Made by a program: the position numbers and the translations under genes. From Poseidonia sp. (lineage in GTDB: Archaea; Thermoplasmatota; Poseidoniia; Poseidoniales; Poseidoniaceae), in the NCBI GenBank assembly GCA_965661285.1, contig CBFIDD010000002.1:316515-380514 (forward strand): a DNA stretch of 64,000 nucleotides, read 5' to 3'. The notes beneath the pieces are model-generated. The model was not told the origin of the DNA. It ran no database searches and worked only from the letters and a program-made list of their open reading frames with translations. Shown here piece after piece: positions 23,278 to 32,308 of this stretch (position 1 is the stretch's first letter; every line of letters begins with the position of its first letter).

Positions 23278-23928
23278 ATGGTCGTAAAGAGTGCAACAAA
23301 AAAGCGATTGATGGAACTTGGCGTCTCCGAAGAGTATGCCCACAAACTCGCTACCGACCGAAACATGACCGACATCAAAAACATGTCTCACGACGATGTC
23401 GCCACCACCCTGGGAATTTCCAAAGACGCTGAGGAATTTATCAACACCATGCGCATCATCGCCGAGCAAGGCTCTCGCCGCCGTGCCGCCAAGAAGAGCA
23501 CGAAAATCACCATCCGTGCCAAAGCCGTTGACGACATGGATCGTCCGGAAATCACCTCCCGCTTCAACGCCCTCAACCACGTGCTCGTTCCCCACCAGGA
23601 ACTCGTCGGCGAGGCCAACATCTCACCCGAAGAACAACTCGCCATCGAGATGGAAGAACTCGCACCTTGGAAGATGGTGCAACCCGATGCCGAGACCGGA
23701 GAAGACCGCCTCGCAAAGGAACTTCTTCCGAAGATTTTGATCACGGACCCCGTGGTTCAGGTCATCAAAGAATTCGCCGAAATTGCAGACGCTGCTGCCC
23801 ATGCGGCCAACCCCGACCACACCCCGTTGGCGGCTGGATGGATTGCAGACCGTGTGCTCAAGGTTGTCCGGCCATCCCCATCCGCCGGAAAGACGGTGGC
23901 TTACCGGCTCATCGTGGAGGGGAACTGA
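23278..23928 (+). CDS. rpoH: RNA polymerase subunit H (Rpb5-like) with ~90-aa N-terminal extension and internal insertions
   Basis: C-terminal region HVLVPHQELV ... LPKILITDPVVQ ... DRVLKVVRPSPSAGKTVAYRLIV matches RpoH. N-terminal [28 protein letters not shown] is paralogous to the N-terminus of RpoA'' ([28 protein letters not shown]). Located immediately upstream of rpoB. Confidence 0.7.
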   Translation: MVVKSATKKRLMELGVSEEYAHKLATDRNMTDIKNMSHDDVATTLGISKDAEEFINTMRIIAEQGSRRRAAKKSTKITIRAKAVDDMDRPEITSRFNALNHVLVPHQELVGEANISPEEQLAIEMEELAPWKMVQPDAETGEDRLAKELLPKILITDPVVQVIKEFAEIADAAAHAANPDHTPLAAGWIADRVLKVVRPSPSAGKTVAYRLIVEGN

Positions 23929-23940
23929 GGAGGAGATATC

Positions 23941-26900
23941 ATGCAGGAAATCATTCAAGCATTTTTCAAACAACGCAGCCTTGTCAACCACCAGTTGGCA
24001 TCCTACAACGACTGTATCCCCGCCTCGGAGAACGCCATCTCCCGCATGGAGCGCATCATCCGAAACATCCGTGTCGGAACCGACGAAGACTTCAACGACG
24101 ACGAAGGCGGCTACATCAAACTCGACGTTCACGACCAAGACATCGTGATTCGTCTCAAGAACGTCAAACTTGGGCAGCCAACGGTGAAGGAAGCTAACGG
24201 TGCCCTGAACCCATCGACACCGATGGAATGCCGACTCCGCAAGTTGACCTACATGTCCCCGGTCACCATCGACTTCACCATCAAGCGCAACGGCGTTCCC
24301 TCTCCAACCGAGACCGGCGTTGCGGTCGGAAACATGCCGATCATGGTACGCTCCGAGCGATGTAATCTTCACGCCAAGCACATTGCTGGCGACCGCGTCC
24401 TCTCGCCGACCACCTCCGCTGAGGACAAGGCCACATGGCACGAACTGCTGCGCAAGAAAGGCGAAGACCCTCTTGACCCCGGCGGCTACTTCATCATCAA
24501 CGGAACCGAGCGCGTGCTCATCTCAATGGAGGACCTCGCTCCAAACCGAGTTACGGTTGAAATCAACAAGCGCTACGCAAAACAAACGGAAGTCGCGAAG
24601 ATTTTCTCACAGAAAGACGGTATGCGCAAGCCGCTGACCGTCGAAAAGCGCCGAGATGGTATGCTCATGGTCAAGATCAGCACGGCCGGTACCACCGCAA
24701 TCCCCGTTGTCTTGTTGATGCGGGCCCTTGGTGTTGAAAACGACCAGAACATCTTCCAAGCGATCGCCGGAAACACGGACTCCTTCAAGTACATCGTCGC
24801 CAACATCAACGAGGTGAACGACAACGAAGAATACAAGGTCGTCACCACCGAAGAAAGCCACCAGTGGCTGGAAAAGAAATTCGCAGCAGGCCAGCAAAAG
24901 GAATACCGCGAGGCTCGTGTGAGCCAACTCCTCGACCGAGAACTCCTCCCTCACTTGGGCGACCAAATCGAAGATCGCGAGAAAAAGGCCATCTACCTCG
25001 GACGCATTGTCCGCCAGGTGTTGGAAATGGCCATTGAAGGACGAGATCCGAACGACAAAGACCACTACGCCAACAAGCGAGTTCGTTTGGCTGGAGACTT
25101 GATCGAAGACCTCTTCCGCGTCTCCGCCGGTCAACTCGCTCGTGACCTCAAGTACCAGTTGGAGCGCCACCACAACCGAAAGCGCGAGCTCAAAATCACC
25201 TCGTGTCTCCGCCCTGACGTTCTCACCAGCAAAATCATGCACGCACTGGCAACAGGAAACTGGGTTGGTGGACGGTCCGGCGTCAGCCAACTCCTTGACC
25301 GCACCACCTACCTTGCCGCGCTCTCCCACATGCGCCGTGTCACTTCCCCGCTTGTTCGAAGCCAACCCCATTTCGAAGCTCGGGATTTGCACCCCACCCA
25401 ATGGGGCCGCCTCTGCCCGAACGAAACACCGGAAGGACAGAACTGCGGTCTGGTGAAGAACGCTGCTCAGATGATCGATATCTCCGAGAACATCGACGAG
25501 GTTGAAATCCGTGAGCGCTTGGATGAACTCGACGTCTACCAACCCGATGACTGGACCGACGGTGACCGTGTCCACGTCAACGGCGACATCTACGGTATCC
25601 ACAAGCGCGGAAAGAAACTCGTGGACCACTTCAAGTCCTCTCGCCGCCGCGGCGTGATTCCTTCCGAGGTCTCCATTCGCCACGATGTGGAGAACAAGGA
25701 CATCTTCATCAACACGGACAAGGGTCGTATCCTTCGACCTTTGCTCATTCTTTACGACGGTGCACCTCGATTGACGCAAGACCACCTGACCAAACTCGCC
25801 AGCGGTGAAATCAACTTCCGCTCCCTCATCCTTGAGGGTGTCGTGGAGTGGGTGGACGCTGAAGAGGAAGAAGACCTCTATATCGCACCTCGTCCGTTCG
25901 TTCTGCCCGAAACCGTCCCCGAAGGCGACAGCGCCGGACTGGCCGGCCGTGTTGTCAAAAACGAGGACATCGAATGGTTGAATTTGGGCGAACCCCGAAG
26001 CGAAGTGGCTCACCTCAAAGCCAAGGTCTCGATGCCCAACGGCGAAATTGCGACCACGGAATTTGATGTTCCGCTTCTCTACACCCCCGAACACACCCAC
26101 TGCGAAATTGACCCGCAACTGGTTCTCGGCGTCTGTGCCTCGCTCATCCCCTACCCCGAACACAACTCAACCCCTCGTGTCACAGGCGGTACGGCGATGG
26201 TCAAGCAATCCTTGGGACTCCCAAGCGCCAACTATCGCATGCGCCCCGACACCCGAGCACACATCTTGCATTACCCGCAACGATCCATCACCCGGACGCG
26301 TGCTATGGAAACCACGAACTTCGACGACCGCCCAGGTGGCCAGAACTTCATCGTGGCCATCATGTCGCTCCACGGGTACAACATGCAAGACGCTGTCATC
26401 ATGAACAAGGGCTCCATTGACCGAGCCCTCGGCCGTTCGACCTTCAACCGCACCTACAACGCTGAACGCCGACGATTCCCAGGCGGACAGGTTGAGGAAA
26501 TCGAAAAGCCCGGTTCGTCCAAGCAGGAGATCAAGGGCTTGAAGGCCCCCGAATCCTACGTCCACCTCGAAGCCGACGGACTCCCCGTCCCGGAAACCGC
26601 CCTTGTAGGCGGGAATGTTTTGGTCGGAAAGACCAGCCCGCCCCGCTTCCTCGAGGAATCCTCAGGTGCTTCGTTCCTGATGGCGCAAGAGCGCCGGGAA
26701 TCCTCGATGCTCGTTCGACACGGTGAGAAAGGCTGGGTCGACAATGTCTACGTGACCGAATCGCTTGATTCCGGCCGCTTGGTTCGCGTGATGGTCCGAA
26801 GCCACAAAGTCCCCGAAGTTGGCGACAAGTTCGCTTCCCGACACGGACAAAAAGGTGTCATCGGCCGCTTGGTTGAACCAGAAGACATGCCGTTCACCCC

Positions 26901-30500: not shown

Positions 30501-30743
30501 GACGACATGCTCTCTGTCCGCAACACGGCCAACCGCATCATCCAGTTCAGCTACGGCGAAGACGGTATTGACCCGTCCCGTGGCGTGCACGGTTCACCGT
30601 TCAACATCGACGTCATCGTTGATGCTGCCCTCGGCACCGAGGGTGGACTCGAAGTCGACCGTGAGTCGTATGAATTCAAGGCCGAAGAGGAAGACATGGG
30701 CGCTTGGGAAGAATCCGCCGAACACGATGGAGGTGAGAACTGA
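27555..30743 (+). CDS. rpoA1: DNA-directed RNA polymerase subunit A' (1062 aa)
   Basis: N-terminal zinc motif [27 protein letters not shown] catalytic loop. Overlaps the rpoB stop by 4 nt. Extra CxxC-containing insertions. Confidence 0.95.
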
Positions 30744-32308
30744 TGGTCGTCAAGAGTGCAACCAAGAAGAAGCTCATGGATTTGGGCATTGAAGAAAACT
30801 TTGCTCACGTTCTTGCCGACGACCGCAAGTGGGACGATGTCAAGGTGATGACGCAAGCCGACATCGCCAAGATCTGTGAAACGGATTCTGAGACGGCTGG
30901 AAACATCCACGCCACCATCATTGCCGCCACCCAAAAGGGCCGAGACGGCGATGGGGAAAACACTGGACCCGTCACAAAAGTTCGCCTCTCCGGTCGACGG
31001 ACAAAGCGCAGAACCCGCGCCAAGACCGTCGTTGACATGGAGACCTACGATTACGACCGCAAGATGCAATCGTTGGAGCATGAACTTTCACAAGACCCCG
31101 TCTACAAGAAGCTCGAAGAAGCCGTGGCTGCATCAGGCTCGGGTCGTTTCACGAACCGAATCCTCGCAGATCTCACCGTCGCATGCCACAGCCGTGGCAA
31201 GAAGAAGTTGACCAAGCCACAAGCCAAGAAGGTCATCGACGAAGCCATCGAGGCTCTTGAACGCGCCAGCATCGACCCCTACGAAGCTGCCGGTATCATC
31301 ACGGCACAATCCATTGGTGAACCGGGCACGCAGATGACCATGCGTACGTTCCACTATGCCGGTGTTGCGACGGTCAACGTCACCCAAGGTCTTCCACGAA
31401 TCATTGAGATCGTGGACGCCCGTAAAGTCCCCCAAACACCGACGATGACCATCCGCCTGAGTGACAAGCAAAAGAACGATGCAAAGGCGGCTCAGAAACT
31501 GGCAGCGGCCATCGAAGTCACCACCACCGTAAACATCGCCACGCTGGACACTGACGTTGCACAACGCCGCTTGGTGCTGAACCTCAACAAAGGCAACCTC
31601 AAGCAAAAGAACATGACCGCCAACGAGGTCAAGGATAAACTTGAACGCGCAACCCGTCTCTACGTCCAAGCTGACAATGAAAAGAACCCCTCGACGCTGA
31701 CCATGATTCCAGGCGTTCATTCTGAAGAGGACCTCGCTGACCTTGCCGAAAACCCGCCCTCGTACACGATGCTCCTCCAACTTGAGGAAAAGATTCGTGA
31801 CATGCGACTCAAGGGCATCCCTGGCATTGAGCGAGCGAACCCCCAGCTTGACGACAAGACCGGTGAGTACTACCTGTCAACCATTGGCAGCAACCTCACC
31901 AGAGTCAGCGAACTCGAGACCATCGACCGGTCCCGCACCTACACCAACAACATCATCGAGATTTACGACTACTTGGGCATTGAAGCCGCTCGACAAGCCA
32001 TCGTTAACGAACTGCAGATGACCCTCGACGGGGCTCGTCTCGAAGTTGACGTTCGCCACTTGCTGATGGTTGCCGACGTCATGACCTCCGAAGGGGAAGT
32101 TCGAGCCATTGGACGACACGGTGTTTCGGGAACCAAGCACAGCATTCTCGCTCGTGCGGCCTTCGAAGTCACCGTCAACCACCTGCTCAAGGCGGGTATC
32201 ATCGGTGAGAAAGACTACCTCACCGGTGTGGCAGAGAACATCATCGTCGGTCAGCCCATTTCCCTGGGCACCGGCAGTGTAGCCCTGTACTACATCCCGG
32301 ATGAGTGA
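30743..32308 (+). CDS. rpoA2: DNA-directed RNA polymerase subunit A'' with ~110-aa N-terminal extension
   Basis: [19 protein letters not shown] and the downstream A'' core. Start overlaps the rpoA' stop by 1 nt. N-terminal extension shares the MVVKSATKK module with RpoH. Confidence 0.9.

Follow-up and report, generated by a model that had tools for sequence, protein, structure and literature searches.

The 64-kb window analyzed here comes from the chromosome of a member of the Poseidoniaceae (Marine Group II; MGII) and carries an RNA polymerase (RNAP) operon, and two of the subunits encoded by this operon, RpoH and RpoA'', begin with paralogous N-terminal extensions that are the subject of this report. 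All features of the operon lie on the + strand, and its genes were identified as open reading frames (ORFs). The first gene, rpoH (Rpo5; 23278-23928), encodes a long form of 216 amino acids (aa) and is preceded by a Shine-Dalgarno-like GGGGAG, read from the sequence, that lies 5 nucleotides (nt) before its ATG (23267-23272). It is followed by an unsplit rpoB (1205 aa; 23941-27558), by rpoA' (1062 aa; 27555-30743), and by rpoA'' (Rpo1C; 30743-32308), which encodes a long form of 521 aa. The TGA stop codon of rpoA' and the ATG of rpoA'' overlap by one base (TGATG), and a Shine-Dalgarno sequence, likewise read from the sequence (GGAGGTGA; 30729-30736), lies 6 nt before the rpoA'' ATG.

RpoH can be divided into a module at residues 1-66 (23278-23475), hereafter the handle, that is predicted to form a five-helix domain resembling tandem helix-hairpin-helix, (HhH)2, and SAM domains; an Arg/Lys-rich linker at residues 67-92 (23476-23553) that terminates in RAKAVDDMD; and the canonical core at residues 93-216 (23554-23925), which was delimited with a profile against RpoH chains in the PDB and which includes two lineage-specific insertions. 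RpoA'' has the same layout. Its handle, of a distinct A''-type, was delimited by sequence comparison with that of RpoH (residues 1-66; 30743-30940) and is followed by a linker that contains a basic run (residues 67-105; 30941-31057) and by the canonical A'' body (31058-32305).

Both subunits start with MVVKSATKK[R/K]LM[E/D]LG, and their first nine residues are identical. BLASTP of residues 1-67 of the two subunits returned a gap-free alignment with 30 of 67 positions identical (E = 4e-13). This pairwise alignment of the N-termini, which had been named beforehand as a check, rules out a low-complexity artefact, since the similarity falls within a helical domain of mixed composition and includes nine identical initial residues. 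The preliminary description of this locus had placed the similarity in the first ~50 residues; the likeness itself stands, but the shared region is longer, comprising the module of ~66 aa and then an Arg/Lys-rich linker of 25-40 aa. MAFFT aligned the 93- and 103-aa extensions with 43% identity, including the Arg/Lys-rich stretch and a common motif, RAKxVxDM. Each module also retains a signature of its own, R10..E13...ATDRNM in RpoH (H-type) and K10..D13 in RpoA'' (A''-type); an example of a peptide from the RpoH extension is LMELGVSEEYAHK. When each module was compared with the six-frame translation of the window by tblastn, the sole match was the other copy (E = 7e-13 and 7e-15), and no further copies besides those on RpoH and RpoA'' were detected in the window or in 80 genome loci. 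A weak match at 60853-60951 lies inside a 476-aa ORF that resembles a pyridine-nucleotide-disulfide oxidoreductase and was attributed to chance.

Solved archaeal RpoH chains comprise 78-84 aa and solved A'' chains 391-397 aa, and neither has an extension of 92-111 aa. A profile of the MGII RpoH core (~93-216) aligned end to end with solved RpoH chains of 78-82 aa (1hmj, residues 3-75; 8cro_H, residues 4-81; and 4qiw_H), and residue 124 of RpoA'' paired with residue 13 of the solved 395-aa Sulfolobus A''. Since the remainder of each protein aligns with a complete canonical subunit, residues 1 to ~92 of RpoH and 1 to ~111 of RpoA'' are extra. Domain models gave a similar picture: PF01191 matched RpoH at residues 145-212 (33.5 bits; cut-off 23.5), the NCBIfam equivalog PRK09570 scored 38 bits against RpoH, under its cut-off of 83, and TIGR02389 matched RpoA'' at residues 154-516 (426.9 bits; cut-off 420.65), with the 111-aa extension outside the model. 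With its 92-aa extension, the 216-aa RpoH departs from the globe-only archaeal form (~78-84 aa), and archaeal RpoH is described as having no N-terminal extension (PMC3906176). The PF01191 match and the PDB chain alignments therefore agree with the preliminary description of a long RpoH with its canonical part at the C-terminus, and the BLASTP, MAFFT, and solved-chain alignments uphold its proposal of a paralogous accessory module that is missing from canonical subunits.

The 216-aa RpoH has 841 relatives, and all of those with a named source are from Poseidoniales or Poseidonia. The 80 loci from species-representative genomes are 75-94% identical and are labelled Poseidonia, Poseidoniaceae, or Poseidoniales. 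Both modules were present in 56 of 56 Poseidoniaceae genome loci that span rpoH and rpoA'', as well as on a divergent MGII contig (L092) with identical synteny and an RpoH of 196 aa. Scanning of JGI metagenomes with a degenerate DNA pattern yielded 120 loci, whose products include 27 of the RpoH type (194-207 aa) and 46 of the A'' type (about 511-531 aa if complete), and the loci that cover both genes had both modules in every case (14 of 14). An odd spacing of rpoH and rpoA'' at one of the loci (L067) was caused by a scaffold gap of Ns. A HMMER search of 1.84 billion cluster representatives with a two-sequence profile (E ≤ 1e-3) returned only 181 proteins, which makes the module family a narrow one. 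To judge from the sequences listed, it is confined to Poseidoniales-type sequences and virus-like elements, which places the suspected lineage-specificity of the module at the level of the Poseidoniales.

Sequence or profile searches of Pfam, NCBIfam, and the PDB produced no match to the module; no HhH or SAM family of Pfam matched it at E ≤ 10, and a structure search of viral proteins in BFVD returned nothing significant. AlphaFold applied to the single full RpoH sequence gave an unusable model (predicted local distance difference test, pLDDT, of 41), and a model of the module based on an alignment was used instead. For RpoH residues 1-68 and an alignment of 57 sequences, AlphaFold2 predicted five helices (residues 5-14, 18-24, 30-34, 38-45, and 52-65), with residue 3 bridging residue 26 (pLDDT 89.7; predicted template modeling score, pTM, 0.72). 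Two HhH units and a connector helix can be recognized in this model, as is characteristic of the (HhH)2/SAM-like fold. Foldseek aligned it with FANCM/FAAP24, UvrC, RadA, and the SAM domain of SARM1 at template modeling scores of 0.6-0.7, although the E-values were not significant for so small a domain. The element had initially been described as HhH-like, and the AlphaFold2 model and Foldseek matches indicate that this is right structurally, but the claim does not extend to sequence, where HhH profiles went unmatched. The hairpin sequences are LG[IV]x and, in RpoH alone, LGIS, and the second Gly of the G-h-G consensus is missing. In both subunits the globular module has a net charge of -2 and an isoelectric point (pI) of 5.5-5.6; the RpoH linker has a net charge of +5 and a pI of 10.9. 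Judged from the model, the module belongs to the (HhH)2/SAM-like class by fold and is a new family by sequence. The predicted structure resembles the protein-binding SAM and NusA-AR domains as much as it does the DNA-binding (HhH)2 domains, and the fold class to which it would belong holds both non-specific DNA binders and pure protein-protein modules. Nucleic-acid binding, the role initially suggested for the element, is one candidate function alongside protein docking.

Many of the HMMER matches were neither RpoH nor A''. These proteins have the first 35-45 residues in common and then continue into unrelated sequence (120-1290 aa). The metagenome loci encode 57 such non-RNAP proteins of at least 100 aa. 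Sorted by C-terminal part, they form 14 groups, and 10 of these have at least two independent members; two singleton groups proved to be truncated A''. The proposal that a domain was duplicated onto two RNAP subunits thus needs to be amended, since both subunits do carry the module but it is not limited to them, being found on at least 10 unrelated families. Among the 57 proteins, the module is A''-like in 50 and RpoH-like in none, and its mean identity to the nearest host A'' module is 64% (family means 54-69%). Residues 1-15 are near-invariant across hosts and all other families, and codons for the same residues differ, with Ser5 encoded by AGT in the host and by TCA on virus-like contigs. 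Several other candidate carriers were rejected. P0372, which lies on a contig of 1.59 Mb and looked like a host-chromosome carrier, is a frameshifted piece of A''; P0393, P0396, and P0424 are truncated A''; P0403 and P0411, apparent fusions, are truncated or chimeric A''; and short module matches on contigs of 184-444 kb are likewise truncated A''.

Three of the carriers have informative partner domains. In P0184 (193 aa) the module is fused to a cyclin repeat of transcription factor B (TFB), with PF00382 above its cut-off and a match to the NCBIfam TFB model at profile positions 106-216 (E = 5e-14), so that the module occupies the place of the Zn-ribbon and B-reader by which TFB contacts the polymerase. 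In P0191 (851 aa), C2H2 fingers and a module at residues 92-148 are combined with a defence-type ATPase (AAA_15/AAA_21), and the protein may act in defence, with the handle serving as sensor or decoy. P0189 has an RpoH-type module and linker ahead of an unrelated Zn-ribbon protein. The ATPase of P0191/P0304 (L217, 2205-4760) is weakly similar to retron and PtuA defence ATPases. Two stretches of P0231 (186 aa) matched the HMM, which would imply two tandem, divergent copies of the module.

Contigs with non-RNAP module genes range from <2 kb to ~170 kb, and the informative ones (44-169 kb) are dense in ORFans. Their recognizable genes encode PCNA, class II ribonucleotide reductase (RNR), ERCC4, a FEN-type 5'-3' exonuclease, endonuclease VII, a Holliday-junction resolvase-like nuclease, UvdE, nucleoside deoxyribosyltransferase, ThyX, a TET-associated glycosyltransferase, and DNA methyltransferases. 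In five loci, a full TFB gene is situated 2-3 kb away from the module gene. Magroviruses have double-stranded DNA (dsDNA) genomes of 65-100 kb with an archaeal-type replication module and, in group B, RNR, and the Aoguangviridae magroviruses encode TFB and PCNA (PMC5434244, PMC10768690). The module contigs of 44-169 kb share the hallmarks of the magrovirus replication module, namely PCNA and nucleases and, in some, RNR or TFB. The commonest non-RNAP family occurs on no contig >200 kb among the contigs looked up, whereas host RpoH occurs on contigs of up to 1.9 Mb. We regard these proteins as viral or mobile-element proteins because the gene content matches that of magroviruses, the contigs are small, and the match on a megabase contig is an A'' fragment. 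Magrovirus group D elements encode subunit A of an archaeal-type DNA-dependent RNAP (PMC5434244).

Two further features of these contigs were observed. The TFB homologs, which comprise a Zn-ribbon and cyclin repeats (L081, 7569-8411; L135, 6608-7552; L167; L168; and L196), lie beside two module families and are 26-28% identical to TFBs of Halorubrum and Sulfolobales viruses. In a run of four co-oriented genes, the commonest module gene comes last (L086, 8244-10648; L089, 8295-10579), and all four products have a similar (A/S)IN(K/R) motif close to the C-terminus; GLGSLFG-like repeats also occur in the module protein.

We are highly confident that the modules are paralogous, that they form a new family under purifying selection, that the A''-type module recurs on at least 10 unrelated families, and that one copy is fused to a TFB cyclin core. 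What the handle does is a more tentative matter. In archaeal RNAP, the lower jaw is built from H and A'' and adjoins downstream DNA, and both subunits rearrange between initiation and elongation (PMC2847245); Rpb5/Rpo5 contacts the C-terminal part of the largest subunit extensively (PMC13257274). Because H and A'' make up the lower jaw, the two handles would be tethered flexibly on the downstream-DNA face of the enzyme. To the reading that the handle is a protein-protein docking domain, which viruses have reused to reach the same partner, we give slightly less than an even chance, and we prefer it to the alternatives discussed below. The handle would dock in the manner of a SAM-SAM or NusA-AR2/alpha-CTD pair, either with its sister handle or with a lineage-specific protein, while the basic tether would rest on nucleic acid. 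Viruses of Poseidoniales would have added copies of the A''-type handle to many effectors, which would thereby reach the same docking site, be it the RpoH handle, the polymerase, or its partner, and, with virus-encoded TFB, redirect or inhibit host transcription. Docking is favored because the globular part is acidic, because the N-terminus is near-invariant across unrelated host and viral proteins, and because the signatures are specific to each type. It is also favored because the A''-type is near-exclusive on virus-like contigs, because one copy is fused to a TFB core, and because the fold is common to SAM and AR2/alpha-CTD pairs. A fuller version, in which the A''-type handle is a molecular "boarding pass" by which at least 12 viral effectors dock SAM-like on the RpoH handle or its partner and reprogram transcription together with viral TFB, and in which P0191 is possibly a host decoy sensor, is a rather unlikely elaboration.

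Several points weigh against the docking reading. The viral proteins diverge past residue ~45 and may not retain a complete five-helix domain. Any binding partner of the handle is hypothetical, and the predicted fold is just as characteristic of proteins that bind dsDNA non-specifically (topoisomerase V, FANCM/FAAP24, UvrC, and the N-terminal domain of RadA). The A''-type bias of the viral copies could also stem from one capture in an ancestor and later shuffling of the domain. That the elements are viral is itself deduced from gene content, the density of ORFans, and contig sizes, none of which exceeds ~170 kb. Capsid, portal, and terminase genes were absent from windows of ±10 kb around the module genes; no confirmed module was detected in IMG/VR by peptide or degenerate DNA pattern, nor was a close relative of the FEN gene from a virus-like contig; and neither P0225 nor the 824-aa L086 protein was matched by any GenBank phage record.

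The most serious alternative is a non-specific grip on duplex DNA: the module would be an (HhH)2 domain of which two copies hold downstream DNA, and viral proteins would use the same anchor. Such a grip, which can be likened to the N-terminal jaw of Rpb5 or to the repeats of topoisomerase V, would increase promoter opening, processivity, or salt tolerance. The fold and the position of the subunits are compatible with this, but the globular domain is net acidic, the second hairpin Gly is not conserved, and HhH models of Pfam were unmatched even at E = 10. Moreover, a stretch of 9-15 N-terminal residues that is invariant between unrelated host and viral proteins would be unusual for a generic DNA binder, and the viral copies keep only the first HhH and the connecting helices. 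We consider a DNA anchor possible but doubtful.

It is more doubtful still that the modules serve only RNAP assembly, as a heterodimerizing H/A'' pair, with the viral copies acting as decoys that sequester free RpoH or A''. The strict co-occurrence of the two modules, the retention by each type of its own conserved signature, the presence of heterodimerizing SAM and AR2/alpha-CTD pairs in the same fold class, and the near-complete restriction of viral copies to the A''-type would all be expected of such a pair. However, canonical archaeal H and A'' assemble without a module of this kind, and the varied C-terminal domains on the viral copies indicate the delivery of functions and not titration. 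We therefore view an exclusive role in assembly as improbable.

The remaining explanations deny the extension a role as protein, and they were weighed against substitution rates among 79 Poseidoniaceae rpoH genes. Synonymous sites of rpoH are near saturation (proportion of synonymous differences, pS, 0.62-0.67), and the ratio of nonsynonymous to synonymous rates (dN/dS) is lowest over codons 1-15 (0.012) and reaches 0.051 over codons 1-48, 0.052 across the linker, and 0.083 in the core. Codons 1-92 are thus under strong purifying selection (dN/dS about 0.05). The corresponding values for rpoA'' are 0.098 for codons 1-48, 0.185 for the linker, which is the most variable segment of the protein, and 0.052 for the core. 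The initial MVVKSATKK is invariant in 80 of 80 rpoH genes and in all 56 available rpoA'' genes. Within one genome, the RpoH and RpoA'' modules differ at synonymous sites by pS 0.72-0.77 (0.77 over codons 1-15) and at nonsynonymous sites (pN) by 0.34, so that the duplication is old and the likeness has been kept at the protein level and not by gene conversion. The two modules, to judge from these comparisons, are old paralogs with no sign of gene conversion.

A nucleotide-level explanation, in which a translation or regulatory signal or a recombination cassette is conserved and the protein module is functionless, is very improbable. It finds some basis in the SD-like (Shine-Dalgarno-like) sequences before both genes and in the low pS of rpoA'' codons 1-15 (0.26, versus 0.57 for codons 1-48), but it is largely refuted by synonymous-site data: the same codons of rpoH have a pS of 0.62 with a dN/dS of 0.012, the paralogs of one genome differ by a pS of 0.77 there, host and viral copies use different codons (AGT versus TCA for Ser5), and the region is predicted with high confidence to be a folded domain. 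Codons 1-15 of rpoA'' (30743-30787) are nevertheless unusual, with a pS among Poseidoniaceae of 0.26 versus 0.57-0.70 elsewhere in the gene and 0.62 in codons 1-15 of rpoH. These values suggest that the junction of rpoA' and rpoA'' is further constrained at the nucleotide level, perhaps by translational coupling. Least credible is that the extensions are annotation artefacts and that RpoH really starts at Met12 or Met87. Certain gene callers do begin RpoH at Met12, and the 205-aa database entries reflect this other choice, but the ATG and MVVKSATKK invariant in 80 genomes, the GGGGAG 5 nt upstream, the low dN/dS of codons 1-15 (0.012) and of the whole extension (0.05) despite near-saturated synonymous sites, and the identical N-terminus of A'' and many other proteins practically exclude an internal start and confirm the long start codon initially proposed.

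The surroundings of the operon have several features of their own. A tRNA-Lys(UUU) gene (23155-23230, + strand), identified by ARAGORN, ends 47 nt before rpoH, and tRNA-Lys likewise precedes rpoH at the divergent L092 locus; in both MGII lineages examined the distance is 47-51 nt (window 23155-23277; L092 9873-10000). The spacer between tRNA and rpoH is G+C-rich and has no evident TATA box, and a TATAAG lies ~45 nt 5' of the tRNA; the tRNA and rpoH may therefore be co-transcribed. Upstream of the tRNA, on the - strand, is a gene for a 484-aa protein (21517-22971) whose place beside the rpo operon is kept across MGII lineages and whose counterpart in L092/L093 has a methyltransferase domain (weak Pfam matches) and a biotin/lipoate-protein ligase domain. 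Within the operon, RpoA' has an insertion of ~143 aa (28809-29237; residues 419-561) relative to residues 400-409 of Thermococcus A'. This insertion is Cys-rich, with CHNPEC...C and ACPHCG motifs and weak Zn-ribbon Pfam matches at residues 519-538, and is a further lineage-specific addition to this polymerase. A 106-aa ORF after rpoA'' (32332-32652, + strand) is probably ribosomal protein L30e, because the gene in the equivalent position of L092 matches PF01248. Directly 3' of the operon, a 1180-aa protein (32645-36187, + strand) has a long Asp-rich array of calcium-binding-like repeats (DxDxDGxxD) that resemble thrombospondin type 3 repeats, and a hydrophobic segment at its C-terminus; from its sequence it is probably a surface protein. 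Elsewhere, the stretch at 8001-10000 has a G+C content of 0.446, versus 0.55-0.60 across the remaining window, and may be a small island or foreign gene.

Among known systems, the handle invites comparison first with the bacterial alpha-CTD, which is likewise a small (HhH)2-like domain on a core polymerase subunit, attached by a flexible linker and present in two copies per enzyme, and which docks DNA and regulators. NusA-AR domains provide a precedent for acidic (HhH)2 folds devoted to protein-protein contacts. Unlike the alpha-CTD, the Poseidoniales domain is N-terminal on the lower-jaw subunits Rpo5 and Rpo1C and not at the C-terminus of alpha, the sequences are unrelated, and its copies are diverged paralogs on different subunits that are held in common with viral proteins. 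The N-terminal jaw domain of eukaryotic Rpb5 is also an N-terminal addition to the Rpb5/RpoH globe, in the lower jaw near downstream DNA, and it is a known target of the viral regulator HBx (PMC13257274). A Pfam scan of the full RpoH (E ≤ 1) gave no match to Rpb5_N (PF03871), detecting only Rpb5_C and a sub-threshold WYL_3, and the handle differs from Rpb5_N in its fold (five-helix HhH2/SAM-like), its much smaller size, and its basic linker. The handle is thus an independent, lineage-specific acquisition relative to the Rpb5 N-terminal domain, and the sequence-profile results place it in neither the alpha-CTD nor the Rpb5 N-terminal family.

In comparison with the (HhH)2 domains of topoisomerase V, FANCM/FAAP24, XPF/Hef, UvrC, and RadA, the handle is acidic, its hairpins are degenerate, and sequence similarity is not detectable. 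SAM domains form an essentially eukaryotic family, to which the handle has no sequence match in searches of Pfam, NCBIfam, or the PDB. The module, which is missing from these libraries, was also unmentioned in the literature searched. Lineage-specific accessory domains on polymerase subunits are a known kind of innovation. The literature presents archaeal RpoH as the C-terminal globe alone and reserves an N-terminal jaw domain for eukaryotes, whereas here a whole order of very abundant marine archaea has independently equipped both lower-jaw subunits with a tethered accessory domain, as an archaeal analog of the bacterial alpha-CTD idea.

Viral proteins that shut down or redirect host transcription are well known, such as T7 Gp2, which acts on the beta' jaw, and ATV ORF145/RIP, which acts in the archaeal DNA channel. 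Those proteins are single, dedicated inhibitors with no known homology to host subunits, whereas in the Poseidoniales a domain of host subunits recurs as a common N-terminal tag on many putatively viral proteins, and this is what sets the system apart. If the docking model is true, such a tag would be of high interest. The recurrence of the domain on presumed viral proteins already provides a testable entry point to virus-host transcription takeover in an uncultivated lineage and to a sequence signature that ties magrovirus-like contigs to Poseidoniales hosts.

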